Part shown: piece after piece, positions 4,348 through 50,302 of the stretch
How the letters are laid out: each line of letters starts with the position of its first letter
How positions within the stretch are numbered: position 1 is the stretch's first letter
Origin: a virus
Taxonomy: Duplodnaviria > Heunggongvirae > Uroviricota > Caudoviricetes
IMG/VR virus record: IMGVR_UViG_3300033076_001232
Location: 142,435-206,434 of that record
DNA length: 64,000 nt
Direction: 5' to 3' (one strand)
The notes under the pieces: model-generated
The model's database searches: none
Told to the model about the DNA's origin: nothing
The model's input: the letters and a program-made list of their open reading frames with translations, nothing else
Program-made: the position numbers and the translations under genes

Positions 4348-4369
4348 ATCCCTCTCAGAGGGATTTTTT
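4348..4369 (+). terminator. Rho-independent terminator
   Basis: stem atccctc/gagggat followed by T6. Confidence 0.65.
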
Positions 4370-4435
4370 ATGAGATAAATTTTTTAATCCCGCGACCAAA
4401 ATTTACATTTAGGTCAAATTACTAAAAATAACACT

Positions 4436-6055: not shown

Positions 6056-6100
6056 AATTTTATCGGACATGTTTCATAGAAAGATAAAAGAAAATTATTA

Positions 6101-20502: not shown

Positions 20503-20589
20503 TCCAATTAGCTATGGGTTTCATTAAAAGAATAAAGAAAGCGATATCCTCATGGATTTCTCGACATATAATAGCAGAACTCTCACCCG

Positions 20590-20943: not shown

Positions 20944-20945
20944 AA

Positions 20946-21218
20946 ATGAATTACACAAATCCAAACGATCCGGATCACGTAGATGATCCAAAAGACTGGT
21001 TAAACTCGTCTCTTATATTTTCTAATGCACTTTCTCTAATATTAAGAGAGGGAGAAGGTATAGTTGTTGACATTAAGGGAGATATGAATTTCCCAGGAGA
21101 CGAATCTATAGAGAAGGTAATAGTTTTCCATAGAGAGAAAATGGTCAGAGTAATAGAATGTGAGGATGATTTAAAAGAGGGTACATGGGTAATCGTCCAT
21201 GATATAAATCCAAATTAG
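20946..21218 (+). CDS. Hypothetical protein
   Basis: ORF track. Confidence 0.45.
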   Translation: MNYTNPNDPDHVDDPKDWLNSSLIFSNALSLILREGEGIVVDIKGDMNFPGDESIEKVIVFHREKMVRVIECEDDLKEGTWVIVHDINPN

Positions 21219-21252
21219 GATTTTTAATCTCCGTACATCAAGAGTACTTTTG

Positions 21253-21367
21253 TTTCGTTAGAAGTCATTTCTGAATTGCTCTAGTAGATCTACTAGAAAT
21301 TATGGGACAAATCCTAGAAATTCTAGGATTTGTCCTAGAATTCAATCCGATATGAGTTTCTAACGAA
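21253..21367. promoter_or_regulatory. Nested palindromic region upstream of prs-like gene
   Basis: outer tttcgttagaa(21253-63)/ttctaacgaaa(21357-67); perfect 16-bp palindrome ctagtagatctactag (21281-96); 15-bp arms ggacaaatcctagaa / ttctaggatttgtcc (21305-35). Confidence 0.6.
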
Positions 21368-21425
21368 ATTTTTTTTATATCTTTATCTAATACAATGGAA
21401 CTAAAACAATTGTAAAATCAAAAAA

Positions 21426-22391
21426 ATGGCAGAAATACTAAATCTGGTAAATCCGAAAGATAGCTTATCCTTTAAATATGAGATAAGCAGGTTCCCTGAC
21501 GGCCAGCAATCATTAAGACTGATTGAGGATGGTTACAACACATTCAATTCACTAAAGAATGCGGCGATCAAAATAAAGTCAAGACTAAACAATTTCCAGG
21601 ATTTGGAAATTATCATTTGCGCAACACAAGCTCTTAGGGAGGTTGGAGTGAATGATATCAGTCTTTACATTCCTTATTGTGTTGGTGCTAGAAGCGACCG
21701 AAAATTTTCAGAGGGTGGAATCAATTATGTTAAGACGGTGATTGCACCTATTATCAATTCACAGGGCTACTCGAGTGTCACAATACTTGATCCACATTCT
21801 GATGTGCTTGAGGCTTGCATTAACAATTTCAAAAAGATAAACAATTTCAATTTAGTCAATTTTTCTTTGAAAGAAATCCTACTTGAAGATTGGAGAAAAA
21901 CTTCGGACGATATTGGTTTCGAAGGGTGGTACAAATACGACTGGCTAAAGAACCCGGACATTGTCCTAGTTTCACCCGATGCAGGTGCTTATAAGAAAAT
22001 TTTTGATGTTGCAGAAAATTTCAGAATTAAGAGCATAGCAACAGCGGTCAAAGTTCGAGATTTGGAAACTGGAAAGATCCTGAGAACGGAGGTTCCAAAT
22101 TTACCCATTAGCACAACAGGAAAAGAATTTAGGTATGTAATTATCGATGACATTTGTGATGGCGGTAGAACATTCATTGAATTGGCAAAAGCGATCAAAG
22201 CTAGTCGCCCAACTGCTGAGATCTATTTAGTGGTCACTCATGGAATCTTCAGTGCTGGGTATGCTGAATTAGGAAAATATTTTAATGGAATCTATTGTAC
22301 AAACTCGGTAAAGGACATCGTACACGATCCAGAAGACACCGACCTCGAAAGAGAAATGAAGGAAAAAGTAAAACAATTAAACGTATTCTAA
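21426..22391 (+). CDS. Ribose-phosphate pyrophosphokinase-family protein (Prs-like; possibly ADPR-pyrophosphate synthase type)
   Basis: FPDGQ, IPYCVGARSDRK (cf. IPYFGYARQDRR), ILDPHS, VSPDAGA, VIIDDICDGGRTF PRPP-binding loop. Confidence 0.7.
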   Translation: MAEILNLVNPKDSLSFKYEISRFPDGQQSLRLIEDGYNTFNSLKNAAIKIKSRLNNFQDLEIIICATQALREVGVNDISLYIPYCVGARSDRKFSEGGINYVKTVIAPIINSQGYSSVTILDPHSDVLEACINNFKKINNFNLVNFSLKEILLEDWRKTSDDIGFEGWYKYDWLKNPDIVLVSPDAGAYKKIFDVAENFRIKSIATAVKVRDLETGKILRTEVPNLPISTTGKEFRYVIIDDICDGGRTFIELAKAIKASRPTAEIYLVVTHGIFSAGYAELGKYFNGIYCTNSVKDIVHDPEDTDLEREMKEKVKQLNVF

Positions 22392-22747
22392 TGAGTAGCA
22401 TGGAATCGCACGTAGGTAAGCTACGTAAGGTACAAAGAAACGAAGGTCAGTCAGTTGAGGATTGGTGTAGAGAAAAATGTGAAGATAGAGGAGTTCCAAG
22501 TATGTTACCTGAGTTATATGACTCTTGGAAAGAAACCTTGAAGTATCATTTAGATCTATATGAGACTTACTTTTTTATTAACGATGAGATATGGGAGGTT
22601 TTTGATCATAAAGAGTTAGGTGATGATGACATCTATGAGATGACACCAAACCCAGATGGGACCATTTCATTTACGATGAGATTTTACAATGGTGGTACTT
22701 GCTTAAGTGAATGTATTGAGGAAGGTTTAGAACAATTAAATAAATAA
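22391..22747 (+). CDS. Hypothetical protein
   Basis: TAATG overlap with prs-like stop; MSSMESH start. Confidence 0.4.
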   Translation: MSSMESHVGKLRKVQRNEGQSVEDWCREKCEDRGVPSMLPELYDSWKETLKYHLDLYETYFFINDEIWEVFDHKELGDDDIYEMTPNPDGTISFTMRFYNGGTCLSECIEEGLEQLNK

Positions 22748-22753
22748 AAACAT

Positions 22754-23149
22754 ATGACACTTACAGAAATTTTATCGATCATCTTTATCCATTGGGTAGC
22801 TGATTTCATTTTTCAAGCTGAAGTATGGGCAGAGAATAAAAGCAAGAGTCTAAAACCACTTCTAAAACACACCTACACGTACTCTGCAATATGGCTAATC
22901 GTCGGATCACTTGCTAAAGCGACCGGAGCTATCCATTTGGAACCGGGAGTTCTCAGTCTTTTTGTCCTGATAACCTTTGTGCTTCATACAGTCACTGACT
23001 ATTTCACGAGTAAGATCGTTTCCAAAAGATTTGCTAATAAGCACTACGGAAGTCCTATACCAAATTTCGGAGCGTTTACAGTTATTGGATTTGATCAGGT
23101 TCTCCACTACACGCAATTATTTTTAACCTATTATCTTCTAACAAAGTAA
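22754..23149 (+). CDS. Small polytopic membrane protein
   Basis: 3-4 hydrophobic helices. Confidence 0.5.
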   Translation: MTLTEILSIIFIHWVADFIFQAEVWAENKSKSLKPLLKHTYTYSAIWLIVGSLAKATGAIHLEPGVLSLFVLITFVLHTVTDYFTSKIVSKRFANKHYGSPIPNFGAFTVIGFDQVLHYTQLFLTYYLLTK

Positions 23150-23694
23150 TGGAACAAACAGCAATAGAAACAGGATACAACGAGATTGAAGGAGATTTAA
23201 TCGAGTTTGCAAAACAGAGGATGTTTGATGTGATAGCACATGGATGCAATTGCATGAGCACGATGGGAGCTGGTATTGCTCCGCAAATGGCAAAAGCTTT
23301 CGGATGCGACCGATTCGAAATGGAAATGTGGGGGTCAACAATTGAAAAGCTCGGTAACATAGATTACCAGACTTTCGTAATTGGAGAATTTGCAATCTGG
23401 AACCTGGAAGATGCCAAGAATAATCGAAATGAACACGAACTAACTGTGGTTAATGCCTACACCCAATATAATTACGGTAGAAATCACGCAGATGGTCACG
23501 CAGCACCTTTTGATTATGATGCTTTCACTATTTGTGTCAGAAAGATGAACGAGGTGTTTAGAGGAAAGCATATTGGACTTCCGATGATAGGTGCAGGACT
23601 AGGAGGAGGTAATTGGAATAGAATCAAAGAGATCATTCGTTACGGACTCAGAGACTGTAAAATAACAGTTGTAATCTATAAACCTAAACAATAA
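23149..23694 (+). CDS. Macro-domain (ADP-ribose binding/processing) protein
   Basis: VIAHGCNCMSTMGAGIA and IGAGLGGGNW glycine-rich loops typical of macro domains. Confidence 0.55.
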   Translation: MEQTAIETGYNEIEGDLIEFAKQRMFDVIAHGCNCMSTMGAGIAPQMAKAFGCDRFEMEMWGSTIEKLGNIDYQTFVIGEFAIWNLEDAKNNRNEHELTVVNAYTQYNYGRNHADGHAAPFDYDAFTICVRKMNEVFRGKHIGLPMIGAGLGGGNWNRIKEIIRYGLRDCKITVVIYKPKQ

Positions 23695-24209
23695 TGAAAG
23701 TAATCAAACCTACAACCGAAAACCAATCAGTAAGATCCAACGATGTCTCGGTATTTTTAGCTGGCTCGATCGAAATGGGATCTGCTGAGGATTGGCAATC
23801 TAAACTCGAAGCCAAGTTAAAGGAAACTTTAGACCACGAGGATATTGTCCTATTCAACCCTCGGAGGGAATCCTGGGATTCCTCATGGGAGCAAAGAGAA
23901 ACAAATCCTGAATTCAATTACCAGGTTAATTGGGAATTATCAGCATTAGAAATGGCTGATATTATATTCTTGAATTTCTTACCCGACACAAAGTCTCCGA
24001 TATCTCTATTGGAGCTTGGAAAGTTTGCAAATAGCGGAAGAATGATTGTTTGCTGCCCTGATGGATTCTGTAGAAAAGGAAACGTCGAGATTGTCTGCAG
24101 TAGATATAACGTTCCTTTTTACGGATCTCTAGACGAAGCAATAGGATCATTGGTTACACGAATACACAAAACAAGAGTTTCTAAAAATTCTTTTTTTCTT
24201 TTACCCTAA
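23694..24209 (+). CDS. Nucleoside 2-deoxyribosyltransferase / Rcl-family protein
   Basis: VFLAGSIE N-terminal motif and SLLELGKFANSGRMIV catalytic-Glu motif. Confidence 0.55.
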   Translation: MKVIKPTTENQSVRSNDVSVFLAGSIEMGSAEDWQSKLEAKLKETLDHEDIVLFNPRRESWDSSWEQRETNPEFNYQVNWELSALEMADIIFLNFLPDTKSPISLLELGKFANSGRMIVCCPDGFCRKGNVEIVCSRYNVPFYGSLDEAIGSLVTRIHKTRVSKNSFFLLP

Positions 24210-24219
24210 ATACTAAACT

Positions 24220-24771
24220 ATGAAATTAAAATTTAACAGCTTAACAGCACGTTTATACAGATGGTTCTATATGGAATCAGGAATGCCGGAAAATCTATGT
24301 CCATATTTTTGGAAGCTAGTGTTAATGTGGCTATTAATGGTCCCTACCGTTATTCTCACACTCCCTGTTATTGTAACCAAGCAGAAACCAGATCATACTC
24401 TTTCCCGATTAATCTTAGGTTTTGCCTTATGGGTTTTTTTCGGAATTATAATTGTCGCTTTAGCCCCTATTACAATATTCTTTTGGGGATTTCTAGGTGA
24501 AAAATCAGTAATCGGAAACCTTCAATCTTTTGGTATTTTTCTTTGGGTAGTGATTCTGATGATTTCTATAATCTTTGGTGTGGTTCACCTTTTAAAAACG
24601 ATTAAAGATAGAAGAAATCATATAAGGAGAGAGTGGATTTGGGACCATAATGGTGACTATGTTAAAAATCCAGACTATATTCCTTATGAACCACAGACAA
24701 GCATTATAATTGAATTCATCAAGGCAAAGTATAAAAAGTACTGTCCAAAGATAGAATGGTCTAGAGACTAA
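24220..24771 (+). CDS. Polytopic membrane protein
   Basis: Multiple TM helices. Confidence 0.5.
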   Translation: MKLKFNSLTARLYRWFYMESGMPENLCPYFWKLVLMWLLMVPTVILTLPVIVTKQKPDHTLSRLILGFALWVFFGIIIVALAPITIFFWGFLGEKSVIGNLQSFGIFLWVVILMISIIFGVVHLLKTIKDRRNHIRREWIWDHNGDYVKNPDYIPYEPQTSIIIEFIKAKYKKYCPKIEWSRD

Positions 24772-24789
24772 CCTAAAATCAGAATAGAA

Positions 24790-25035
24790 ATGAATACCGA
24801 AAATCAGAAAGTAAACAAGGAATATCAAATGTTAACCGTCCGTGAGCACTTCGCAGCTATGGCAATGCAAGGAATGCTGGCTAATATCGATCAATCATAC
24901 GGTAAACCGAACGTAAATCAATCATCGATGGAGGATTCTTTAAGAAGAGAACAGCAGTTCATTGATGACGTAGCAATTAAAGCAGTTAGATATTCCGATG
25001 CTTTATTAAGAGCATTAGAAACTAAATCAGAATAA
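24790..25035 (+). CDS. Small hypothetical protein
   Basis: ORF track. Confidence 0.4.
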   Translation: MNTENQKVNKEYQMLTVREHFAAMAMQGMLANIDQSYGKPNVNQSSMEDSLRREQQFIDDVAIKAVRYSDALLRALETKSE

Positions 25036-25036
25036 A

Positions 25037-25504
25037 ATGAAAAGGTTAAGTAATAAAATAAAATATTCAGATAAAATTTTAGATAATTTATCTTCATTAA
25101 ATAACAAAGGTGATGGTGAGTTTATGGATGCTGAATGTGTTGACTTGTGTGATGCACTCAACTCAATGAAGGGAGTCACAACAAATGAATCTTGTTGTGG
25201 ACACAATCATCAACCTTATCGTATTTGGTTTAAGTGTGATTCATTAGAACCTTTAACATTTATTCAATCTTGTATTGATAGAAGGTATTGGGAATATGGC
25301 AATGAATGGTACATTGAACCTTCCATTTCAGATACAAAACCATTTCTAAACTTTGCCTTGACTAGCAAGTCTACTGATTTGAAAACCATCGTGTCACAGG
25401 TTGAAAGTATGATTGATATTTTCAATTACTATTTAAACCACGAGAATAGATTTGAAATGCTGGGTCAAAAATATGAGAATTTTATTTTTACCGAAGCTGA
25501 ATAA
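25037..25504 (+). CDS. Cys-rich hypothetical protein
   Basis: ORF preceded by aataaaATGa context. Confidence 0.45.
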   Translation: MKRLSNKIKYSDKILDNLSSLNNKGDGEFMDAECVDLCDALNSMKGVTTNESCCGHNHQPYRIWFKCDSLEPLTFIQSCIDRRYWEYGNEWYIEPSISDTKPFLNFALTSKSTDLKTIVSQVESMIDIFNYYLNHENRFEMLGQKYENFIFTEAE

Positions 25505-25531
25505 AACACTAACTAAATAAATCACAATAAG

Positions 25532-25834
25532 ATGAAAATACCACAGAAGATTAGAGTCAACTATTTTGACCTGGAAGTTCTAATGGCTCAAATGCTGGGA
25601 AAAGCTGAGCAATTCGAAAATGATGATATTGAAAATTTAGAAGAGGAATTCTACGAAAAATTTGATGTTGATTCAGAGCAGTTTCAAAAAATAGTAGAGC
25701 ATCTGATGCCATACACCGTATTATCTAAATCTGATCTTTCTGATGAAATAAGAATAGGATTCGTGAATCACAATGAGGGTGTCTATATAGTAAAAGAAAA
25801 TATCCAGCTAGAGAAGGTCATCAAGGAAGCTTAA
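25532..25834 (+). CDS. Hypothetical protein
   Basis: aataagATGa context. Confidence 0.45.
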   Translation: MKIPQKIRVNYFDLEVLMAQMLGKAEQFENDDIENLEEEFYEKFDVDSEQFQKIVEHLMPYTVLSKSDLSDEIRIGFVNHNEGVYIVKENIQLEKVIKEA

Positions 25835-25877
25835 AAATAGGAACATTGGAAGAAGTTTATAACGAAATCAAAATAAG

Positions 25878-26153
25878 ATGATAAAAACAAGAGAAAAATT
25901 ATTGAATGGAAATAATTGGTGTCATATCTATGTAGATGATGATGGGATAACTAATTATCATAATACTAAAACAAACGAAACCTATAGGGTAATACCTGAT
26001 AAATCGGCTTTTGGTTTTCATTTAGAGTATTTTAAAGATGCTGAATTAAAAGCAAGAAATAGTGTTTCGTTTGATGAGATGAAATGTATTGCTCTGTTAG
26101 CAGGTAGCAACAATCTGCTGAAAAACTTAGTCGGTGGAGAAAAAACTGTTTAA
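25878..26153 (+). CDS. Hypothetical protein
   Basis: aataagATGa context. Confidence 0.45.
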   Translation: MIKTREKLLNGNNWCHIYVDDDGITNYHNTKTNETYRVIPDKSAFGFHLEYFKDAELKARNSVSFDEMKCIALLAGSNNLLKNLVGGEKTV

Positions 26154-26163
26154 TTAGAATAAG

Positions 26164-26337
26164 GTGGAAAAAATACAAGATGTTAAGATTGGTCAAAAAA
26201 TAATCTCTCCGAGAAACGGTAAAGGGATCATAACCTCCAAAACAAAAAGAACAATAACCGTTGTTTTCGAAAATGGAAATACTTCGAAAGTAACTTACAA
26301 ATATAATGATGCGTATTTTTACGCATCAGATTTTTAA
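26164..26337 (+). CDS. Small hypothetical protein (57 aa, GTG start)
   Basis: Gap-filling ORF; contains 8-bp hairpin gatgcgta/tacgcatc near 3' end. Confidence 0.25.
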   Translation: MEKIQDVKIGQKIISPRNGKGIITSKTKRTITVVFENGNTSKVTYKYNDAYFYASDF

Positions 26338-26354
26338 CCTTCGATCGGAATAAA

Positions 26355-26507
26355 ATGGCAGGACTATTTTTATTTACCTTTATTTTTATCATCGCACAAT
26401 TTTTTGAGAAGTCAGATTATGAAAGAATGAAAGATGCTCAAAAGCTAACTTCGTTTACTAAACAAGAAGCAGAAAATTACTACATCAAAACATTTAAATC
26501 AAAATAA
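26355..26507 (+). CDS. Small TM peptide (50 aa)
   Basis: ggaataaaATGg context; hydrophobic N-terminus; stop abuts next start. Confidence 0.35.
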   Translation: MAGLFLFTFIFIIAQFFEKSDYERMKDAQKLTSFTKQEAENYYIKTFKSK

Positions 26508-26508
26508 G

Positions 26509-27180
26509 ATGAAAAATATACACTTATTACCAACAGAAAATTATAAACAAGATTACACTTTACAAAGTGGAGAAGTTGTAGAAGTCGTTAGATTAGGTCA
26601 GTTAATAAAAAATAGTGAAACTAATGAATTATTAATAAATAAAAATTCACATTGGGCAGCTTCATGTGATACTGACGTTCTGGTTCCTCATCATATTTAT
26701 ATTACTTCGGATGAACAAATTAAAGATAGAGATTGGTACATTTATATAAAAGATGGTTTATTAATACAATATAAAAAAGAATTTAATCCGTCTGCCGCAA
26801 GTGCTTCATACAATAAAAAAATTATTCTAACAACAGACCAAGACTTAATTAAAGATGGTGTACAACCTATTGATGATGAGTTTTTGGAATGGTTTGTTAA
26901 AAATCCAAGTTGTGAAAAGGCTGAGATTGAAAATGGCTGGGGTTTAGAAGTCGACATTCAAACTCCTTATTACAAAATAATTGTCCCAAAAGAAGAACAA
27001 TTACCAACAAAGTGGTTCAATACAGAAGAAATTGAAACATGGATTGGTAATTCAGATGAAGGTGGTAGAGGTAAGTTGATTGTACTTCATCAGTGTGGTG
27101 AAAATAAAGAAGAACTTATCAGTCAGTTAACTACAATGATTGATGGTTTAAAAAATGGATTTGAATACTTCGCACAATAA
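26509..27180 (+). CDS. Hypothetical protein
   Basis: ORF track. Confidence 0.5.
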   Translation: MKNIHLLPTENYKQDYTLQSGEVVEVVRLGQLIKNSETNELLINKNSHWAASCDTDVLVPHHIYITSDEQIKDRDWYIYIKDGLLIQYKKEFNPSAASASYNKKIILTTDQDLIKDGVQPIDDEFLEWFVKNPSCEKAEIENGWGLEVDIQTPYYKIIVPKEEQLPTKWFNTEEIETWIGNSDEGGRGKLIVLHQCGENKEELISQLTTMIDGLKNGFEYFAQ

Positions 27181-27191
27181 ATTAAAATAAT

Positions 27192-27638
27192 ATGAAACAA
27201 ATTAGTAAATCAGAATGGTTTGTATTAGACAGACCACTTGCGGAGCCAAATGTAAAATGGAGTGACGAGGATGGTGAATATCACATAGAAAGATACGTTT
27301 ATCAAGATGGTGCTGTCATTTGGTTTGGTTGTGATACTAATTGGAAGAAAGAGACTGGTGGTAATTGGACAGTACTCGCAACAAATACTGATGCTAAACC
27401 ATTAGAAAAATACTTACCCGAAATAGTGTATGGTAATGATAGAACATATTGGAAAGAATGTGAAATGCCGATATACGAGAAACTTTATTTAGGATTAAAA
27501 TCGGAATCTTGTTCTTGTAATAACGGGATAATAGTATGTCCAGGATGCGAGGGTGAGAAAAAATCGGAATTCGGCGTGTGTGCCGGGTGCCTCGGAGAAG
27601 GTAATGTTACGTGCGGTAAGTGCGGCGGAAATAATTAA
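27192..27638 (+). CDS. Protein with DnaJ-type CxxCxGxG zinc-finger repeats at C-terminus
   Basis: CPGCEGEK..CAGCLGEG..CGKCGG. Confidence 0.5.
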   Translation: MKQISKSEWFVLDRPLAEPNVKWSDEDGEYHIERYVYQDGAVIWFGCDTNWKKETGGNWTVLATNTDAKPLEKYLPEIVYGNDRTYWKECEMPIYEKLYLGLKSESCSCNNGIIVCPGCEGEKKSEFGVCAGCLGEGNVTCGKCGGNN

Positions 27639-27649
27639 ATTTGGATAAG

Positions 27650-27769
27650 ATGAGAAAAACATTAATAATAATTTCACTACCATTTAGATGGTTAGCTTAT
27701 CAGTTCCTTCAGTGGCTATTAAGAAGACACGATGACTATAACGAGAACTTTAAAAAGTATAACCTTTAA
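27650..27769 (+). CDS. Micro-ORF (39 aa)
   Basis: ataagATGa context; gap-filling. Confidence 0.25.
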   Translation: MRKTLIIISLPFRWLAYQFLQWLLRRHDDYNENFKKYNL

Positions 27770-27781
27770 AATCGAAATAAT

Positions 27782-27973
27782 ATGAAGATAGTAAGCTTAT
27801 ATCCATATGATGATGTATACCAAGTAGTAAGTGAAGATGAAGAAACAATTTACTATCAAGGTAGCAAAAAGGATTGTGAAAATAGGATTAAAAAAATTGA
27901 GCTAAATGAGCAAATGAGAGATAACTTAAAAGCAAAACTTTTTCTCACATCTATACTACACCGAAACATTTAA
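27782..27973 (+). CDS. Small hypothetical protein
   Basis: aataatATGa context. Confidence 0.4.
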   Translation: MKIVSLYPYDDVYQVVSEDEETIYYQGSKKDCENRIKKIELNEQMRDNLKAKLFLTSILHRNI

Positions 27974-27984
27974 ATCGGAATAAA

Positions 27985-28092
27985 ATGACAATAGATATAA
28001 TTTTGATACCAATATGGTTGTTTTCATCAGGTGTTTTGGTAGGTATATTAATTGCTGAAAGCATTATTAACAAAAAGAAAAACAAATCATAA
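27985..28092 (+). CDS. Micro-ORF TM peptide (35 aa)
   Basis: ggaataaaATGa context; single TM helix. Confidence 0.3.
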   Translation: MTIDIILIPIWLFSSGVLVGILIAESIINKKKNKS

Positions 28093-28096
28093 TAAG

Positions 28097-28225
28097 ATGA
28101 CGGCAATACTTATTAAAGCTGAAATGACCGATGAACAGCTAGAGGCTCTCGTTTCGGAGATCACGAGAATAGCAGAAGGAATAGGAATTAACTTAACAAT
28201 ACAATCGAAGGAAGATGAGCTTTAA
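28097..28225 (+). CDS. Micro-ORF (42 aa)
   Basis: aataagATGa context. Confidence 0.25.
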   Translation: MTAILIKAEMTDEQLEALVSEITRIAEGIGINLTIQSKEDEL

Positions 28226-28373
28226 AGCAATTAAAACCATATTTTGGTTCCGATTTTTTTCAGTATTTGACGTGCTGTTCTCGGAAAGATTCGAACTAAC
28301 TACTTGGGATAAAGAAGGTAGACAAACTTCTAAAACAAAATTCTCCAGAAGGGAGATAAAAGAAAAACTTTAA
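28215..28373 (+). CDS. Micro-ORF (52 aa)
   Basis: Gap-filling ORF overlapping previous by 11 nt. Confidence 0.25.
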   Translation: MSFKAIKTIFWFRFFSVFDVLFSERFELTTWDKEGRQTSKTKFSRREIKEKL

Positions 28374-28387
28374 TTAAAATACAGAAA

Positions 28388-28570
28388 ATGGGATTTTTAT
28401 CAAACTTAGTAAGCGCAACAGTAAAGACAGCACTAACCCCAGTGGCAGTCGTTAAGGATGTTGTTAATGTAGTAAAAGGGGAAGAAGCTGATTCAACTAA
28501 GAATCTTTTAAATAGTGCAGGAGAAGATCTTAAGGATGCAGGAGACGATTTAGTTGACGGCAACGTCTAG
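28388..28570 (+). CDS. Small hypothetical protein (60 aa)
   Basis: ORF track. Confidence 0.35.
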   Translation: MGFLSNLVSATVKTALTPVAVVKDVVNVVKGEEADSTKNLLNSAGEDLKDAGDDLVDGNV

Positions 28571-28641
28571 ATCAATTTTTTTCCCCCGTAAAGCAGTTTT
28601 AATTTTGGGTTCTAAATTAGGAATCCGCTAAAAAATAAAGA

Positions 28642-29046
28642 ATGAAATCTTTCAGTAAATTAGATGTAGATAAAGTCATCAGGATCGAATTAATCGAGCC
28701 GAAGTTATCTAGTTATAAATGGCTACCAAAGAAACAAAAAACATTTCTCTTTGGTCTCATCAAAAGAAACCGATGGAACTCCGAAGGCTTTTATCGTCAT
28801 GGATGCTATCAAGAATGTTACGAAAGCGGTTGCTTTGACGCAACCCCGGACAGCGAGAGGTGGCTTACAGAAAGAGGATACTATGTCTACCCAGATAAGA
28901 GTGTTTGGCATCCTGCTACCGTCCACGTAGATCTTGATCACGGGGTAAGATCTACAATAGCCTTTGGTAATACGGATGAAGCAAAGGAGTGGATTTCAAA
29001 ATTGGAGGAAATGTGTGGCAAAAAGTTTATCAACTACGGAAAATAA
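28642..29046 (+). CDS. Hypothetical protein
   Basis: ORF track. Confidence 0.45.
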   Translation: MKSFSKLDVDKVIRIELIEPKLSSYKWLPKKQKTFLFGLIKRNRWNSEGFYRHGCYQECYESGCFDATPDSERWLTERGYYVYPDKSVWHPATVHVDLDHGVRSTIAFGNTDEAKEWISKLEEMCGKKFINYGK

Positions 29047-29050
29047 AAAA

Positions 29051-29422
29051 ATGGAGATATTATTTAATCACGCCTTTATAAGAGTATTAGTTTACCCTAA
29101 AAAGAGATACAATGGCTCATGTCTCTATATCAAAAAAGGTTATAAAAATCTAGTCGGCCGCAAGTTTTGGATTTTTCCGGAATATGAAAAAATAGACTAT
29201 GCAGTTTTAACAACTTGGCCGGAGAGATTTGTATGTAGTGTTGAAGACTATGAGAGCGATGAAAAATACATTGAGAACAACGTAATCTATTACAAGCCTC
29301 ACTGCACAATAATCATGAATGACAAATCTGCCAGATCTGTAATTTTTGATACCCCCGAGGAACTGGAAAACTATGTGTCCGAACTTAAAGGAGGAATTCC
29401 ACACCTAGTGATAGAAGAATAA
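29051..29422 (+). CDS. Hypothetical protein (start trimmed to ATG 29051)
   Basis: In-frame ATG immediately after upstream stop. Confidence 0.4.
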   Translation: MEILFNHAFIRVLVYPKKRYNGSCLYIKKGYKNLVGRKFWIFPEYEKIDYAVLTTWPERFVCSVEDYESDEKYIENNVIYYKPHCTIIMNDKSARSVIFDTPEELENYVSELKGGIPHLVIEE

Positions 29423-29448
29423 AAAGTAAAATCGTAAATTCAAGTTAT

Positions 29449-31020
29449 ATGAAAGGAATAAACCCAGCCCTTCTAACCGACGGTTATAAAACAGGGCACC
29501 ATCAGCAATACCCGGAGGGAACAACTCTAGTGTATTCTAACTTTACCCCAAGAAGTAACAAGTATGCACCTAAGGGATGCGATCATGTTGTTTCTTTTGG
29601 TCAGCAACTTATCATGAAGCAGATTCACGAGAGCTTCCAAAAAGATTTCTTCGATCAGCCTAAAGATGAGGTGTGCTCGGAAATTAAGAGAGAGCTTTCT
29701 CTTTATCTAGGAGTCGATTACGATGTTAGTCACTTCGAAGCCCTTCACGATCTTGGATATTTACCTATTAAGGTTAAAGCAATCAAAGAGGGAACTTTAG
29801 TGCCAATCAAGGTTCCTGTCTTGACTATCTATAATACGGATCCCAACTTTTACTGGGTAACCAACTATTTGGAAACACTAATCTCAAATCTTCTTTGGAA
29901 GCCAATGACTTCCGCAACAATTGCTTACCAATACAAGAGAGTTCTTACCGATTGGGCTCTTAAAACCGACAAGGAAAACAAAACATTTGTTCAGTGGCAA
30001 GGTCACGATTTCTCTATGAGAGGTATGGATTCAGTGGATGCTGTAATTTCTTCCGGTCTTGGACACCTAACATCTTTTACTGGAACAGATTCCCTTCCTG
30101 CAATTTACGGAGCTCGTAAGTATTACGGAGCGGAAGGATTTGTCGCAGCGTCAGTGCCAGCAACAGAACACTCGGTAATGTGTGCTGGCGGGAAAGAGGA
30201 TGAGATTGAGACATTCCGAAGACTGATTAAGACTTACCCTGCTGGTATCTTGTCAGTAGTATCTGATACTTGGGATTTGTGGAAAGTGTGTACGGAGCAT
30301 GTGGTTACTTTGAAAGAAGAGATTTTGGCTCGTGATGGTAAGTTGGTTATTCGTCCTGATAGTGGTGACCCGGTTGATATCCTTTGCGGTACAGAAGATT
30401 ATACAAAATCTAAATTACCTTATGATGAGGTTAAAGATGTAGAAGTTATGCACCCTAGCCAAAAAGGTGTAATTGAACTTCTTTGGGATGTATTTGGAGG
30501 AACTGTTAACGAACAAGGTTACAAAGTACTTGATCCACATATCGGAGCAATCTATGGCGATAGCATTACTATCGATCGTGCTGAGCAAATCTGCAGCAGA
30601 TTAGCTTCAAAGGGATTTGCATCAACAAACGTAGTGCTTGGGGTAGGATCTTTCACTTACCAGTACAACACCCGCGATACATTTGGTTTTGCAATGAAGG
30701 CAACTTATGTTGAGGTTAAGGTTCCTAAATATGGTGATTTTGCGGACCAAGGGTTGAATACCGAAATTGAAGGTAGAGAAATCTTCAAAGATCCAATCAC
30801 CGATGATGGAACGAAGAAATCTGCAACTGGCTTACTAAGCGTAGTTAGCCGTCCAGGTGAAGGTTTAACCCTAGTTGATAAGTGCGACTGGAAACATGAA
30901 AATGTCGGAGCATTGGAAACAATCTACCACGACGGAAAATCTAGCTCCGAGATCACTCTTTCTGAAATTAGAAACAATCTTGAATTTTCTTTGATTAAAG
31001 AGAGAGAAATTATTTTTTAA
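29449..31020 (+). CDS. Nicotinamide phosphoribosyltransferase-family protein (NAMPT/NadV-like; possibly Namat-type)
   Basis: VPATEHSVM, SFTGTDS, IRPDSGDPV motifs conserved with NAMPT. Confidence 0.7.
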   Translation: MKGINPALLTDGYKTGHHQQYPEGTTLVYSNFTPRSNKYAPKGCDHVVSFGQQLIMKQIHESFQKDFFDQPKDEVCSEIKRELSLYLGVDYDVSHFEALHDLGYLPIKVKAIKEGTLVPIKVPVLTIYNTDPNFYWVTNYLETLISNLLWKPMTSATIAYQYKRVLTDWALKTDKENKTFVQWQGHDFSMRGMDSVDAVISSGLGHLTSFTGTDSLPAIYGARKYYGAEGFVAASVPATEHSVMCAGGKEDEIETFRRLIKTYPAGILSVVSDTWDLWKVCTEHVVTLKEEILARDGKLVIRPDSGDPVDILCGTEDYTKSKLPYDEVKDVEVMHPSQKGVIELLWDVFGGTVNEQGYKVLDPHIGAIYGDSITIDRAEQICSRLASKGFASTNVVLGVGSFTYQYNTRDTFGFAMKATYVEVKVPKYGDFADQGLNTEIEGREIFKDPITDDGTKKSATGLLSVVSRPGEGLTLVDKCDWKHENVGALETIYHDGKSSSEITLSEIRNNLEFSLIKEREIIF

Positions 31021-31067
31021 TTCCGTAAACGGGTTATTAATTTGCATAAATTTTTAAAATATAATAC

Positions 31068-32939
31068 ATGAACACAGCTTTAATTTTTGACTACTGGTGG
31101 ACAATCATACCAGTTTTAGCGTTGATCTTCTATAAGTTCACGCTTCGATTCTTCTTCGGTATGGTAATAGTACCAGAGGACAAAATTGGTTTAGTTACCA
31201 AGAAATTCGTACTCTTCGGAGCTAACAGATCACTTCCCGATGGTAAGATCGTAGCTCTAAATGGTGAACCTGGTTACCAGGCAGACACATTAGCTCCTGG
31301 TCTATATTGGGCTTTCTGGGTTTGGCAATACTCTATAGAGATGCAGAATCTGGTAGTTATCGAGAAGGGAAAACTTGGTTTAGTAACAGCGAAGGACGGT
31401 GTTCCATTACCTACTGGATCAATTTTAGCTAGACACGTAGAGTGTGATAATTTCCAAGATACTCGTGCATTCTTAACCAATGGAGGTCAAAGAGGTAAGC
31501 AGGTTGGATATCTTAACAACGGGGTATATCGTATCAACACTCAACTCTTTGATGTATACCACGCTGATATTACATACATCGAAGATGGTATGGTCGGTGT
31601 TATTACAACTCTAGACGGACGTCCATTAGATCAAGGTAACATCGCAGGTTCTCTGGTAGAAGGACACAATAACTTCCAGGATTTTGATTCATTCTTAGAG
31701 AATGGAGGACAAAGAGGTCTACAGATTCAGGTGATCCAGGCCGGTAGCTATTCATTAAACCCTTGGGCTATTGAGGTAGAGAAAAAAGAAATGACCTCAA
31801 TTCCTATCGGTCACGTTGGTGTTGTTATCTCCTACGTTGGCGATGAAGGTATTGATCAAACCGGTGACACTTTTAAACATGGTAACATTGTTAAGAAAGG
31901 ACAAAAAGGAGTTTGGATCTCTCCGCTAGATCCTGGTAAATATGCAATCAACCCCTACACACAAAAGATCGAAGTTGTCCCAACAACTAACCTTGTTTTG
32001 AACTGGGCAAATGCAAGAACAGAGTCTCACGCATTAGATAAGAACCTAAGCACAATCACGGTTCGTTCTAAAGACGGTTTCCCATTCAATTTGGATGTAT
32101 CCCAGATTATCCACATTCCTTCTACTGAAGCACCTAAGGTAATTGCTCGATTTGGTTCTATGTCAAACCTTGTCTCTCAGGTACTTGAGCCAACTATCGG
32201 TAACTACTTCCGTAACTCTGCACAGGATTCAGATGTTATTGCTTTCTTAAGCACACGTCAAGCCAGACAAAATGCTGCTAAAGATGCAATCAGCAAAGTT
32301 CTTGACGAGTACAACGTACACGCTGTAGATACTCTAATTGGAGACATCACACCTCCTGCAGAACTTATGAAAACTCTAACCGATCGTAAGATCGCTCAGG
32401 AGGAAGAGGTTACATTTGAAACTCAGAAGAAAGCTCAGGATCAACGTAAAACTCTAGAGTCAGCTAAAGCTCTTGCAGATATGCAGGGACAAATGGTACA
32501 AGCTCAACAATCGGTAGAGATCTCACAGAGACAAGCCGAGGCAGAGGTTAAGAAATCAGAAGGTGAAGCCAAAGCGATGGAGCTTAAGGCTGGAGCTCAG
32601 GCAAAAGCTAAAAAGCTGATGGCTGAAGCCGATGCTTCTCAGATTAAACTTACCGGTGAGGCTGAAGCAAGCAAGATCGAGAAAATCGGTAGAGCAACAG
32701 CAGAAGCTTATCAATTACAGGTACAAGCAATGGGCAACGACAACTTTGCTAAGCTTAAAGTTACTGAGGAGATAGGTAAAAATGGAATCAAGATTATTCC
32801 AGAAATCCTAATCTCAGGAAGCGAAGGTGGCAATGGCCCAATAAGCGGATTGCTTGGAATGGAGCTTCTTAATCAAATAAGAAACAGAGAGGCTGACACT
32901 TCCTCCGGACAAGACAAAATCCAAGAGGATAAAAAATAA
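31068..32939 (+). CDS. SPFH/flotillin-like membrane protein with internal repeats and A/E/K-rich coiled-coil tail
   Basis: N-terminal TM helix; repeated NFQD..FL.NGGQRG.Q units; flotillin-like AEAE/KAK-rich C-terminus. Confidence 0.5.
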   Translation: MNTALIFDYWWTIIPVLALIFYKFTLRFFFGMVIVPEDKIGLVTKKFVLFGANRSLPDGKIVALNGEPGYQADTLAPGLYWAFWVWQYSIEMQNLVVIEKGKLGLVTAKDGVPLPTGSILARHVECDNFQDTRAFLTNGGQRGKQVGYLNNGVYRINTQLFDVYHADITYIEDGMVGVITTLDGRPLDQGNIAGSLVEGHNNFQDFDSFLENGGQRGLQIQVIQAGSYSLNPWAIEVEKKEMTSIPIGHVGVVISYVGDEGIDQTGDTFKHGNIVKKGQKGVWISPLDPGKYAINPYTQKIEVVPTTNLVLNWANARTESHALDKNLSTITVRSKDGFPFNLDVSQIIHIPSTEAPKVIARFGSMSNLVSQVLEPTIGNYFRNSAQDSDVIAFLSTRQARQNAAKDAISKVLDEYNVHAVDTLIGDITPPAELMKTLTDRKIAQEEEVTFETQKKAQDQRKTLESAKALADMQGQMVQAQQSVEISQRQAEAEVKKSEGEAKAMELKAGAQAKAKKLMAEADASQIKLTGEAEASKIEKIGRATAEAYQLQVQAMGNDNFAKLKVTEEIGKNGIKIIPEILISGSEGGNGPISGLLGMELLNQIRNREADTSSGQDKIQEDKK

Positions 32940-32954
32940 AAAACACAATTTAAA

Positions 32955-32982
32955 AGATAGGTCTTCGGACCTATCTTTTTTT
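32955..32982 (+). terminator. Rho-independent terminator (UUCG tetraloop)
   Basis: 9-bp stem agataggtc/gacctatct, loop ttcg, T-run. Confidence 0.85.
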
Positions 32983-32995
32983 AATTTAATTCGAT

Positions 32996-33154
32996 ATGGA
33001 GAAGCAGAAAAAAATTGATGCAGCAATCAAGGACACAAAGTTAAGATTGAATCATACAGAGCAAGAGATTATGCTCTTACTTCGTGAGAAGGAAACTCTA
33101 AAGAAACAATTAGATGCTTTAGAGTGTATAAGAGACGACAAAAATCTTGAATAA
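32996..33154 (+). CDS. Small coiled-coil protein (52 aa)
   Basis: Gap-filling ORF; stop abuts next ATG. Confidence 0.3.
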   Translation: MEKQKKIDAAIKDTKLRLNHTEQEIMLLLREKETLKKQLDALECIRDDKNLE

Positions 33155-33538
33155 ATGAACAAGCTTGAAAAGAAAGATATCCAAGCTATGCACGGATTAA
33201 CAGTAGGAGAACTTAGAAGATTTCTGATGGATCATCCCGAAATAGAGGATGATCAACCTGTTTTAATTGAGAGAGTCGAGGATGTCTACTTTGAAAAAAA
33301 TGGTTGGGGTGTTTATCTCAAAGAGGGTGAAGCCTATCATAATGCTCTCTCATTCAGCAGTAAAATGAGGGAGGAAATCGAAAGACGAAAAAGAGGTGAA
33401 GAACCTGAATATGGTATGGAGGATCCATCTCTTTATATCAAGGATCCGACCGAGGAAGACATGAATCAATATGTACGTGCTTGGTGCTGTGTTAAGTATA
33501 AAGACGACAACGCTTTATTTATAGATTTACATTATTAG
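33155..33538 (+). CDS. Hypothetical protein
   Basis: ORF track. Confidence 0.45.
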   Translation: MNKLEKKDIQAMHGLTVGELRRFLMDHPEIEDDQPVLIERVEDVYFEKNGWGVYLKEGEAYHNALSFSSKMREEIERRKRGEEPEYGMEDPSLYIKDPTEEDMNQYVRAWCCVKYKDDNALFIDLHY

Positions 33539-37383: not shown

Positions 37384-37932
37384 ATGGAAACAAAAATTGA
37401 TCCTAGAGAGATTGAAAAAATCGAAAAATTAACAGGGGGTAAAATCGGAACTCATACCTTTGGTCCAAACCAAGAACACACTTTGGAGAATTCCTTTCTA
37501 TCTCAGGATGGAACATATATTGGAGACTTCGAAAGAGCTCAATGGTACGTTGAACAAAAATTGATGGTCGACGAGGAATACCCACATGGAGTTGCTGCCG
37601 TTATTAAGGACGAAACCTACGGAACAGAAATTCCGGAAATAGAAGGCATGTATGGTTACACTCACAGAGGGGGTCAAATGTTTAAAATCGGTGATCGATT
37701 ATTTGACGAAAGTTACAAACCACAGAAGGAGGACTATCCCGAGGATGAATGGTCGAAGTATGAGGAGAGCTTTAAAAAATCTTACGATGAGGCAGACGAC
37801 CTAAATAAAAAATGGATGGATAACGACGGAATCTCTTATGTTATCCCATTTAAAATGAGAGGGAGAAAGAATATCGAAACTATGAGGGAGGCTTTCGAAG
37901 CAGCTAGAAACATGTCAAAGTATTTAAGTTAA
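37384..37932 (+). CDS. Hypothetical protein
   Basis: ORF track. Confidence 0.45.
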   Translation: METKIDPREIEKIEKLTGGKIGTHTFGPNQEHTLENSFLSQDGTYIGDFERAQWYVEQKLMVDEEYPHGVAAVIKDETYGTEIPEIEGMYGYTHRGGQMFKIGDRLFDESYKPQKEDYPEDEWSKYEESFKKSYDEADDLNKKWMDNDGISYVIPFKMRGRKNIETMREAFEAARNMSKYLS

Positions 37933-39393: not shown

Positions 39394-39939
39394 ATGACTT
39401 GTATAGTTGGATATTTAGATAAGAAAAACAAGAAAGCATTTGTTGGCGGGGATTCTGCGGGAGTCGCAGGATTAGATATCACCATTCGTAAGGATGTAAA
39501 GGTCTTTAAGGTTGATGATTTTGTCATAGGATGCACTTCTTCCTTCCGCATGATACAACTATTGAGATTTTCATTTAGTCCTCCTAAACTTAAAAAAAAG
39601 GATGTCTACGAGTATATGTGCACCGACTTTATAGATGCTGTAAGAGAATGCTTTAAAAAGGGTGGATTTTTACAGAAGTATACCGAAGGTGACGAGAAGG
39701 GTGGAACATTTATAGTAGCTTACAAGGACCGATTGTTTGAAATAGACGATGATTTTCAGGTTGGTGAAAATCTGAACGGCGTTTCTGCAGTTGGCTGCGG
39801 TAAGAACTATGCTCTTGGCGCTCTTCATGCTCTTCGGGAAAAGGAGGGGGATCCAGAAAAGATAGTATTAGCTGCATTGTCAGCAGCAGAGTTTTATTCA
39901 GGAGGTGTCTCATCTCCTTTTATAATAGAAAAAACATGA
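39394..39939 (+). CDS. HslV/proteasome-beta-like Ntn-hydrolase peptidase
   Basis: N-terminal M-TCIVG (Thr nucleophile after Met removal), GGDSAG, KDVKVFKVDDFVIG, AVGCGKNYALGALHAL align with HslV TTIVS..GDGQAT..KKVRRLYNDKVIAG..IGSGG. Confidence 0.55.
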   Translation: MTCIVGYLDKKNKKAFVGGDSAGVAGLDITIRKDVKVFKVDDFVIGCTSSFRMIQLLRFSFSPPKLKKKDVYEYMCTDFIDAVRECFKKGGFLQKYTEGDEKGGTFIVAYKDRLFEIDDDFQVGENLNGVSAVGCGKNYALGALHALREKEGDPEKIVLAALSAAEFYSGGVSSPFIIEKT

Positions 39940-49445: not shown

Positions 49446-49447
49446 TT

Positions 49448-50301: not shown

Positions 50302-50302
50302 G

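Follow-up and report, generated by a model that had tools for sequence, protein, structure and literature searches.

An Adps and Namat gene pair, 7 kb apart, probably encodes the NARP1 pathway in a large environmental phage

The window analysed here is a 64-kb stretch out of a 250-kb contig, and the host of the source phage is probably a Bacteroidota. It contains a single NAMPT-family gene and a single Prs-like gene, as determined by tblastn. The features considered in this study are as follows.

21426..22391, plus strand: PRPS-like protein of 321 aa, putative Adps (ADP-ribose pyrophosphokinase), the first NARP1 enzyme; from PHROG, Adps likeness, residues and linkage
22044-22061, plus strand: AVKVRD with K209, the predicted catalytic-hairpin lysine of Adps; aligned with ICP1 K185
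22146..22175, plus strand: predicted PP loop of Adps, D241-DICDGGRT-F250; from identity with wV8 Adps
23149..23694, plus strand: macro-domain protein of 181 aa, candidate Adpp-like ADPR-1''-phosphate phosphatase; from PHROG 335 and an orthologue profile
23694..24209, plus strand: protein of 171 aa resembling nucleoside 2-deoxyribosyltransferases (PF15891), which recurs near NARP1 genes; from Pfam, PDB and a predicted model
29449..31020, plus strand: NAMPT-family protein of 523 aa, putative Namat (nicotinamide ADP-ribose transferase); from the ORF, profile matches, 9W5X likeness, residues and tree
29548..29580, plus strand: predicted selectivity-clamp loop (SCL) of Namat, P34-RSNKYAPKG-C44; from the published rule and alignment
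30154..30180, plus strand: core motif VPATEHSVM of Namat with H241; from alignment to SPbetaL1 Namat and Nampts
30646..30678, plus strand: predicted selectivity-clamp helix (SCH) of Namat, G400-S-F-T-Y-Q-Y-N-T-R-D410; from alignment and the published consensus
45666-46091, plus strand: small nucleotidyltransferase of 141 aa with GNFDVIHPGY, RfaE-II/TagD-like; from Pfam CTP_transf_like, NCBIfam and PHROG

A gene for a Tad6-family Thoeris inhibitor is also present in the window.

The open reading frame at 29449-31020 is intact from ATG to stop, exactly as the first-pass annotation had delimited its NAMPT-family gene. Its product matched Pfam NAPRTase (E 3.6e-36) and NAMPT_N (E 7.7e-08), NCBIfam NF006629 (548 bits, cut-off 405) and PHROG 448 (638 bits). 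Judged by these matches, its assignment to the NAMPT family is well past chance. In the PDB, the top match was the Namat of SPbetaL1 (9W5X/9W5W, 546 bits), described by Osterman et al. 2024 and by Lan et al. (NAR 2026, PMC12774641), while the human and Xanthomonas NAMPTs scored about 210-222 bits. The alignment to 9W5X is full-length (residues 7-509) and thus spans the two-domain NAMPT-like fold. SPbetaL1 was also the best match among 50,697 phage records, with 54.4% identity over 97% of the length (E 2e-162). The window protein differs from SPbetaL1 Namat in two loop insertions (aa 315-338 and aa 424-442), and the host of SPbetaL1 is Bacillus rather than a probable Bacteroidota.

Every residue in contact with NAM/NMN and the AMP phosphate is conserved (D11, Y13, F188, S189, R191, D214, A238, H241, R302, D304, G370 and D371). 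Of these, D11, Y13, F188, R191, D214, H241, R302 and D304 correspond to D13, Y15, F189, R192, D215, the catalytic His, R306 and D308 of SPbetaL1, whose NAM/NMN-binding core is identical. NadV of KVP40, a member of the NAMPT superfamily, shares this catalytic core (D, Y, F, R, D, H, R, D). H241 aligns with the conserved His of the (A/S)-x-E-H-S core, and we take it to be the catalytic, phosphorylatable residue; this role of the His is described in PMC12774641, where the residue is marked in a figure only. SFTGTDS (aa 209-215), VPATEHSVM (aa 236-244) and IRPDSGDPV (aa 301-309) had been read as NAMPT active-site signatures. All three are indeed present, but they belong to the shared core, and among the sequences compared the PATEHSV form is confined to Adps-linked proteins, while the six phage Nampts carry PAREHST in five cases and MASEHSI in one.

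Outside the core, the residues of the published adenine clamp are conserved. The SCH, GSFTYQYNTRD, is identical to residues 390-400 of SPbetaL1 Namat and fits the Namat consensus GSX-phi-X-phi-X-phi-TRD (PMC12774641), with F402 and Y406 as the predicted adenine-stacking aromatics. By contrast, GGGL(L/M) replaces the SCH in all six of the compared proteins without an adjacent Adps gene, two of which adjoin an NMNAT. The SCL exceeds the Nampt loop in length and does not vary among 15 environmental relatives. Under the published rule, the third residue of this loop is R, K or Y, and if it is Lys or Tyr, the fourth residue stacks, as in Bas63. In the window protein the order is S36-N37-K38-Y39, so that the third residue is K38 and Y39 is the predicted stacking residue. 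This is the Bas63 type, a third-position Lys followed by an aromatic, whereas the SPbetaL1 loop is two residues shorter and of the Arg40 type.

A neighbour-joining tree separated the Adps-linked Namats from the NARP2-type Nampts in 200/200 bootstraps, and the window protein fell on the Namat side. However, clade membership alone is insufficient for calling a Namat, because NadV of Haemophilus ducreyi (9KE8) branches within the Namat clade and gives 443 bits against the window protein. The 9KE8 sequence is a 100% tblastn match to the H. ducreyi plasmid pNAD1 (5.6 kb), and we take its gene to be a nicotinamide-salvage, NMN-forming one; a literature search on 9KE8/9KEO returned nothing relevant. 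Unlike that of the window protein, the clamp of H. ducreyi NadV is degenerate, with GAQTYQRNTRD in the helix and PRSNEQAPY in the loop.

This placement bears on a NARP2-like reading, in which the enzyme would act as a NadV/Nampt that converts PRPP and nicotinamide to NMN, and an NMNAT encoded by 45666-46091, by a gene outside the window, or by the host (NadR/NadD) would complete the route. We regard this reading as improbable. The window protein shares about 30% identity with the KVP40-like Nampt as compared to 54% with SPbetaL1 Namat, and its F402, Y406 and K38-Y39 clamp is intact, in contrast to the GGGLLQ and short clamp loop of the NARP2 Nampts. These Nampts are paired with a NadM/Nudix NMNAT (NatV in KVP40) of about 340-390 aa. 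The one cytidylyltransferase-superfamily gene in the window, which is in favour of the NMN route as far as its superfamily goes and had been suggested as the possible NMNAT partner, classified by HMM as RfaE-II/TagD-like: with the NCBIfam models, it scored 52.9 bits for RfaE domain II and 50 bits for TagD, but about 18 bits for the NadD/NadR NMNATs, and with PHROG it scored 111.7 bits for heptose-1-phosphate adenylyltransferase (PHROG 7878) and 23.7 bits for the NMNAT family. When compared directly with two phage NadM-type NMNATs, its product matched over a 46-residue HxGH region only, and it is devoid of the Nudix half of the NatV-type enzymes. On these scores and this comparison, 45666-46091 was rejected as an NMNAT. 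When every window ORF of at least 110 aa was scanned with Pfam, none of the NMNAT, Nudix, NadR and PnuC families appeared, and tblastn of the window with the two phage NadM-type NMNATs gave no match. Neither the PnuC transporter nor the NadR-like kinase/adenylyltransferase of NARP3 was found among these ORFs, and by these searches NARP2 is represented in the window neither by a KVP40-type Nampt, in terms of identity, clade and clamp, nor by a NadM/Nudix NMNAT.

On the other hand, the view is limited to 64 kb of the 250-kb contig, and the position of H. ducreyi NadV inside the Namat clade is compatible with an NMN-forming enzyme. Namat enzymes also retain PRPP-dependent NMN synthesis in vitro, at about half the level of human Nampt (PMC12774641), so some NadV-like activity is to be expected of the window Namat. 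The presence of a conserved Adps partner again speaks against the NMN route, as does the fact that no phage with both NARP1 and NARP2 has been found. The first-pass annotation had considered both NadV and Namat conceivable, with nothing in the window to settle the route. Of these two options the NARP1 one, with Namat, stands and NadV is not favoured; the adenine clamp, the clade, and the linked Adps gene in well-flanked relatives settle the choice at the sequence level.

The Prs-like gene, 21426-22391, gave only weak matches to Pfam Pribosyltran and Pribosyl_synth, under the cut-off, and its product fell under every NCBIfam Prs cut-off (best, TIGR01251 with 82.4 bits against 113), with the equivalog models far below. 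PHROG 619 matched it with 211 bits. In pairwise comparisons it scored 120 bits against an ICP1-like Adps (36.6% identity) and 55.8 bits against E. coli Prs (24.7%), and an Adps HMM built here gave 178 bits, as compared to 114.7 bits for Prs. By the pairwise bits, the Adps HMM and the failed NCBIfam cut-offs, the product is thus Adps-like rather than Prs-like. The equivalents of ICP1 F18, R87, F92, H121, D161, K185, D212, D213, D216 and F221 are all conserved. K209 aligns with K185 of ICP1 Adps, which is essential, and F250, the equivalent of ICP1 F221, is a Leu in E. coli Prs. In the alignment, the C-terminus ends without the terminal helix segment of PRPS, in line with the Adps-type loss of the alpha11-alpha12 region. 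The PP loop and the next two residues (DDICDGGRTFIE) are identical to those of the Adps of wV8, a Felixounavirus that we take to be Bas63-like. The window pair also shares the two-enzyme logic of the Bas63/Felixounavirus NARP1 operon (genes 79-80), for which wV8 stands in here, although its Namat is only about 35% identical.

According to the textbook reading, this gene would instead encode a true PRPP synthetase that feeds a Nampt and nucleotide synthesis, raising the NMN and PRPP pools with no recycling of ADP-ribose. The residues R89, H124, D185, K209, D241, D242 and D245, which align with ICP1 R87, H121, D161, K185, D212, D213 and D216, would suit a PRPP synthetase equally well; these catalytic and acceptor residues are necessary but not discriminating, because they are common to PRPS and Adps. 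The product also matches PRPS structures, albeit weakly (for example, 4TWB with E 7.6e-13). Nevertheless, the failure at all of the PRPP-synthetase cut-offs, the absent C-terminal helix region, a score for ICP1-like Adps about twice that for E. coli Prs, and the PP loop shared with wV8 make a true PRPP synthetase very improbable. For this pair of genes the textbook PRPP-synthetase prediction was found to be wrong by Osterman et al., and deletion of the Bas63 operon abolished counter-defence in the same work.

In the window, Adps lies upstream of Namat, and the two genes are 7,058 bp and approximately 16-18 ORFs apart, unlike the adjacent pairs of SPbetaL1 and the Bas63-like phages. Osterman et al. 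define a NARP1 operon by Adps and Namat within ten genes, and the window pair lies beyond this distance. Among the IMG/VR relatives, 43 are well flanked, having no less than 9 kb upstream and 3 kb downstream. All 43 encode an Adps on the Namat strand, at a distance of 3 bp to 9.4 kb; it is of the window type in 41 of them, and in the other two a divergent Adps is located directly downstream. The 7-kb gap of the window is therefore normal variation, and since the relatives span such a range, the ten-gene criterion is operational rather than mechanistic. The proposal that the NAMPT-family gene is the distal functional partner of the Prs-like gene is thus borne out by the linkage in the relatives, despite the distance here.

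The distance could alternatively mean that the two genes are uncoupled remnants, which a rearrangement separated and which no longer cooperate, one of them perhaps being inactive or repurposed. Apart from the gap and the intervening ORFs, a terminator-like hairpin between Adps and Namat (26307-26328) would be consistent with this; a second hairpin was located at 32952-32979 in the scan of 20500-33200. Within 20500-33200, 45 sigma-70 promoter-like sites were counted against 41.8 expected, which is uninformative, and the host probably relies on promoters of other types. Both ORFs, however, are intact and keep every catalytic residue, all genes of the region are on one strand, and gaps of more than 4 kb occur in 8 of the 66 relatives that retain both genes. 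Furthermore, Adps and Namat need no complex to cooperate, since their intermediate, ADPR-PP, can diffuse and no stable complex of the two was seen in pull-downs (PMC12774641). Taken with these observations, a loss of cooperation is extremely unlikely.

We conclude that the product of 29449-31020 is very likely a Namat, the second NARP1 enzyme, paired with the Adps at 21426-22391. The NARP1 pathway is already known, having been described recently and characterised at the structural level, and the Namat gene described here is an ordinary case of it with a split layout; like the SPbetaL1 system, it combines a NAMPT-like enzyme with a PRPS-like Adps. From the characterised homologues, we infer the reactions, the preferred substrate and the role against host defence as follows. 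A host NADase defence (Thoeris, SIR2-HerA, DSR, SEFIR or similar) would split NAD+ into ADP-ribose and nicotinamide. Adps would then pyrophosphorylate ADP-ribose at C1'', with ATP as the donor of the beta-gamma pyrophosphate, yielding ADPR-PP and AMP. In Namat, which would work as a head-to-tail dimer and has a catalytic core of the NAMPT type, nicotinamide would displace the pyrophosphate to form NAD+ directly. At the entrance of the pocket, both protomers would contribute to the adenine clamp, one with F402 and Y406 and the other with K38-Y39, and we propose that ADPR-PP is preferred over PRPP because this clamp stacks on the adenine.

A macro-domain gene and a PF15891 gene lie close to Adps. 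The macro protein (23149-23694) matched PHROG 335, annotated as phosphatase, with 151 bits, and the profile of its orthologues matched BT1257, Poa1p (6LFU) and TARG1, confirming a macro domain of the Poa1p/TARG1/BT1257 class. The PHROG 335 family (T4 Tk.4-like) is also common in T4-like genera, which we assume to be without NARP1. In 18 of the 43 relatives a macro orthologue is found next to Adps and Namat or between the two, including one locus (L042) in which the orthologue lies exactly between them, in an Adps-macro-Namat operon. This order resembles the NARP1-AP system of Vibrio phage Gary (Adps-Adpp-Namat; Osterman et al. bioRxiv 2026), which likewise has a macro gene of the Poa1p/TARG1 class near Adps. 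In the window, however, the macro gene is the third after Adps, as compared to the NARP1-AP definition of a Poa1p-like macro gene within two genes of NARP1 whose product has ADPR-1''P phosphatase activity. The macro protein may extend the input of the pathway to ADPR-1''-phosphate, that is, to the NARP1-AP form.

The adjoining gene, 23694-24209, encodes a PF15891 protein (116.5 bits), which matched the uncharacterised protein in PDB 4MCJ with 113 bits. Its fold, as predicted, is the one of nucleotide N-glycosidases and transglycosylases, matching the CMP N-glycosidases MilB/BcmB, the NDTs and DNPH1. Of 80 related loci, 55 have a PF15891 gene along with Namat, and at 50 of the 55 it lies at most 1.2 kb from Adps or Namat. 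The gene orders vary, and include an intra-operon Adps-NDT-Namat arrangement, and the linkage is kept where the Namat is only 46% identical to that of the window. In cultured phages the picture is mixed: in an Erythrobacter phage, 11 kb separate the PF15891 gene from a NARP2 operon, whereas in Ralstonia RsoM2USA and an Alishewanella phage no Namat or Nampt was found within 20 kb of it. A literature search returned nothing linking PF15891 to NARP1, and this recurrent linkage is the one element of the locus that may be new. Tentatively, and with considerable doubt, the PF15891 protein might be an undescribed NARP1 accessory, a third feeder enzyme beside the Adpp macro phosphatase and the RyDEP glycosidase. 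In such a role it could act on immune molecules or by-products derived from NAD, for example His-ADPR, N-linked cADPR isomers or NMN, breaking their C1''-N bond and so supplying Adps and Namat with ADP-ribose or nicotinamide.

These results indicate that the published clamp residues and a linked Adps gene separate Namat from NadV by sequence alone. They also imply that NARP1 genes may be many genes apart, and that screens confined to ten genes miss such loci. NARP1 is probably extended hereby to large environmental phages whose hosts are probably Bacteroidota, where the pathway would travel with the macro and PF15891 genes, and the PF15891 gene merits biochemical attention as a companion of NARP1.

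The gene at 29449–31020 (plus strand) is very probably the Namat of NARP1, the pathway that makes NAD+ from nicotinamide and ADPR-PP, the product of Adps. It is an exact ATG-to-stop reading frame of 523 aa, and the three NAMPT-type motifs quoted in the first-pass annotation were all located in its translation: SFTGTDS at aa 209–215, VPATEHSVM at aa 236–244 and IRPDSGDPV at aa 301–309. The protein matches the Pfam families NAPRTase (E 3.6e-36) and NAMPT_N (E 7.7e-08), NCBIfam NF006629 (548 bits, cut-off 405) and PHROG 448, ‘nicotinamide phosphoribosyl transferase’ (638 bits). Its top match among all PDB sequences is the SPbetaL1 Namat (9W5X/9W5W; 546 bits, E 5e-163), and the human and Xanthomonas NAMPTs scored 210–222 bits in the same search. 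SPbetaL1 was also the top match among 50,697 phage records, with 54.4% identity. By tblastn, the 64-kb window holds a single NAMPT-family gene and a single Prs-like gene.

As described from the SPbetaL1 structures 9W5X/9W5W, Namat retains the NAMPT catalytic core and bears an adenine ‘selectivity clamp’, which has two elements, the variable loop SCL (with Arg40 in SPbetaL1) and the conserved helix SCH (Lan et al., NAR 2026, PMC12774641). The window protein was compared by alignment to seven Namat-type proteins and six Nampts. An annotated ribose-phosphate pyrophosphokinase (Adps-type) gene adjoins six of the seven Namat-type genes and lies two genes off in the other, while all six Nampt genes lack an adjacent Adps and two of them adjoin an NMNAT. 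In the alignment, the core residues D11, Y13, F188, S189, R191, D214, A238, H241, R302, D304, G370 and D371 are all kept in the window protein, and its SCH, G400-SFTYQYNTRD-410, shows no differences from that of SPbetaL1. At the SCH position, GS[FY][TS]YQx-x-TRD is present in all seven Adps-linked proteins and GGGL(L/M) in all six Nampts. The SCL, S36-N37-K38-Y39, has the same published form as that of Bas63, a Lys followed by a stacking residue, and is strictly conserved across 15 environmental relatives.

In a neighbor-joining tree, the Adps-linked proteins split from the Nampts in 200/200 bootstraps, with the window protein on the Adps-linked side. The third-best PDB match (9KE8/9KEO, 443 bits), labeled in the PDB only as ‘nicotinamide phosphoribosyltransferase’, is 100% identical in sequence to a gene on the Haemophilus ducreyi plasmid pNAD1 (NC_005329.1, 3870–5297), which we take to be NadV, conferring NAD independence via nicotinamide salvage. 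Given that this NadV nests within the Namat clade, again in 200/200 bootstraps, clade placement alone is no proof of ADPR-PP use. This NadV has a degenerate clamp (helix GAQTYQRNTRD, where Gln and Arg occupy the two aromatic positions; loop PRSNEQAPY), and it looks like a Namat-lineage protein functioning as a plain Nampt. What sets Namat apart is an intact clamp combined with a linked Adps. Both hold for the window protein, and at the level of sequence the choice between the NadV and Namat routes, which the first-pass annotation had considered undecided by the window, falls on the Namat side.

The Prs-like gene named as its partner is present at the following position:

21426–22391, plus strand: Prs-like gene (Adps), 321 aa, Pfam matches sub-threshold

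The encoded protein reaches none of the NCBIfam PRPP-synthetase cut-offs (82.4 bits at best, where 113 is required), and its score on the phage family PHROG 619 is 211 bits. It matches the ICP1-like Adps of Vibrio phage VRU with 120 bits and 36.6% identity, as compared to 55.8 bits and 24.7% for E. coli Prs, and an HMM built from six Namat-adjacent Adps gave 178 bits for the window protein and 114.7 bits for E. coli Prs. Residues highlighted from the structures of ICP1 Adps (PMC13586617) have their counterparts in F23, R89, F94, H124, D185, K209, D241, D242, D245 and F250, where K209 is the equivalent of K185, the essential lysine of ICP1. The PP loop and the two following residues, DDICDGGRTFIE, are identical in the Adps of Felixounavirus wV8, taken here as Bas63-like, and by alignment the window Adps lacks the PRPS C-terminal helix region. 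Since most of the mapped residues are common to PRPS, they speak for competence and not for specificity; the argument for specificity rests on the similarity, the failed Prs thresholds and the genomic linkage. The 208-bp gap before Adps holds two palindromes (21291–21340), CTAGTAGATCTACTAG and the 14-bp-stem hairpin GGACAAATCCTAGAAATTCTAGGATTTGTCC, which could be a putative operator or terminator.

An IMG/VR scan yielded 458 relatives, and the best 80 of the 458 loci (66–77% identity) were kept; 43 of these 80 are well flanked (9 kb or more upstream, 3 kb or more downstream). A window-type Adps lies on the strand of Namat in 41 of the 43, at gaps of 3 bp to 9.4 kb, which supports the proposal that Namat is the distal partner of the Prs-like gene. 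In the remaining two, the Adps is more divergent and lies directly downstream. In the window, the two genes are 7,058 bp apart, with about 16–18 ORFs between them. This spacing is outside the operational NARP1 criterion of ‘within ten genes’ (Osterman et al.) and inside the range of this clade, where the gap exceeds 4 kb in 8/66 relatives, and there is no obvious mechanistic cost to the separation. The 547-aa profile phrog_12872 is matched by the window Adps at positions 13–223 and by the window Namat at positions 376–534, which points to naturally occurring fusions of Adps with Namat.

A NARP2 reading (Nampt/NadV with an NMNAT) was considered with a small nucleotidyltransferase, raised in the first-pass annotation as a possible NMNAT partner; it is listed here with two further genes from elsewhere in the window:

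45666–46091, plus strand: small HxGH-type nucleotidyltransferase, RfaE-II/TagD-like
16230–18542, plus strand: GT9 heptosyltransferase-like protein
14296–16233: GT1+FkbM protein

HMM classification of the nucleotidyltransferase came out as RfaE-II/TagD-like: among the NCBIfam models, RfaE domain II scored 52.9 bits, TagD 50 and the NMNAT models ~18, all under the family cut-offs, while the PHROG heptose-1-phosphate adenylyltransferase family scored 111.7 bits and the NMNAT PHROG 23.7 bits. Its alignment with the NadM-type NMNAT of Colwellia phage 9A covers 46 N-terminal residues only. With this short overlap, and with the RfaE-II/TagD and heptose scores above the NMNAT scores, it was ruled out as an NMNAT. 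Homologues occur near Namat in only two of the best 80 of 458 loci (L022 and L036). At the HxGH superfamily motif it carries HPGY, the second His being replaced by Tyr. The GT9 gene in the window fits a sugar-nucleotide role for the nucleotidyltransferase, and the three genes suggest a sugar-nucleotide or glycosylation module. In a Pfam scan of all ORFs of at least 110 aa in the 64-kb window, which is part of a metagenomic contig of 250,353 bp, no NMNAT, Nudix, NadR or PnuC came up, and the NARP2 and NARP3 (PnuC with NadR) readings are therefore unsupported within the window.

Downstream of Adps, a small ORF is followed by three genes:

22754–23149, plus strand: DUF3307 membrane protein (PHROG 2470), between Adps and the macro-domain gene
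23149–23694, plus strand: macro-domain protein of the Poa1p/TARG1/BT1257 class, third gene after Adps
23694–24209, plus strand: PF15891 nucleoside-2-deoxyribosyltransferase-like protein, nucleotide N-glycosidase fold

The macro protein scores 151 bits on PHROG 335, ‘phosphatase’, and a profile built from its orthologues matches BT1257, TARG1 and yeast Poa1p, an ADPR-1''-phosphate phosphatase. Of the 43 well-flanked relatives, 18 encode an orthologue, which in some of them, L042 for instance, falls precisely between Adps and Namat. With Adpp, a Poa1p-like macro protein, NARP1 also handles ADPR-1''P and overcomes aRES defence, a form named NARP1-AP (Osterman et al., bioRxiv 2026). On sequence grounds, the window gene is a plausible but inconclusive candidate for Adpp. 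DUF3307 homologues adjoin Adps or Namat in several relatives (L007, L010, L034 and L084), and the protein could be a putative small-molecule transporter.

The PF15891 gene is found in 55 of the best 80 of 458 Namat loci, within 1.2 kb of Adps or Namat in 50 of the 55, and in many gene orders, Adps-NDT-Namat among them (NDT, the deoxyribosyltransferase-like gene). Such genes also adjoin Namats only 46% identical to that of the window. The AlphaFold model (pLDDT 85.9) matches 4MCJ, an uncharacterised Parabacteroides protein, as well as YtoQ, the CMP N-glycosidases MilB and BcmB, NDTs and DNPH1. The association has exceptions: no Namat or Nampt lies inside 20 kb of the gene in two cultured phages, and in a third a NARP2 operon is 11 kb away. 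A second NDT-superfamily member (39936–40280, plus strand, 114 aa; DUF1937/DUF7768/DUF4406) is unlinked to the NARP1 genes. In L096, a more distant relative on a 192.9-kb ENA contig, the Adps-Namat interval holds NADAR-domain and AAA_28 (NadR-kinase-like) genes (4257–4754 and 6018–6569) along with macro and PF15891 genes, which suggests a larger NAD/ADPR-handling island.

Every gene between position 38 and about 53.3 kb is on the plus strand. Other features of the window are:

3429–3918, plus strand: phage-encoded tmRNA, tag EEVELAVAA
31068–32939, plus strand: SPFH/Band_7 protein, 623 aa, directly 3' of Namat
37384–37932, plus strand: Tad6-family type I Thoeris inhibitor, 182 aa (Pfam PF25188, 52.4 bits, cut-off 27)
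44003–45163, plus strand: thymidylate synthase, 386 aa
48576–49445, 49400–50083 and 50258–50848: Thg1-like tRNA-His guanylyltransferase and two HAD_SAK_2 ‘Swiss Army Knife RNA repair’ proteins
59927–61849, minus strand: Cohesin-domain protein with the T9SS sorting domain Por_Secre_tail at its C-terminus

The Namat-SPFH adjacency recurs in L032, L036 and L051 (76–81% identity); an SPFH gene lies just 5' of Adps in L084 and a Band_7 gene two genes 5' of Namat in L095. In the window, a terminator-like hairpin with a 12-bp stem (32952–32979) follows the SPFH/Band_7 gene. The tmRNA, Thg1 and HAD_SAK_2 genes together look like a set of tools for RNA repair or translation rescue. The thymidylate synthase spans a 266-position Pfam profile, implying roughly 120 extra residues as insertions, and the Por_Secre_tail protein points to a Bacteroidota host.

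The window Namat would work with the distal Adps, and possibly also with the macro phosphatase. The Tad6-family gene, as judged from its sequence, would be a second, independent counter to NAD-based defence in the same window. NARP1 is already known, and the locus is a further member with a split gene layout. We found no link between NARP1 and the PF15891 family in the literature searched, and this recurrent neighbour is the only element that may be new.
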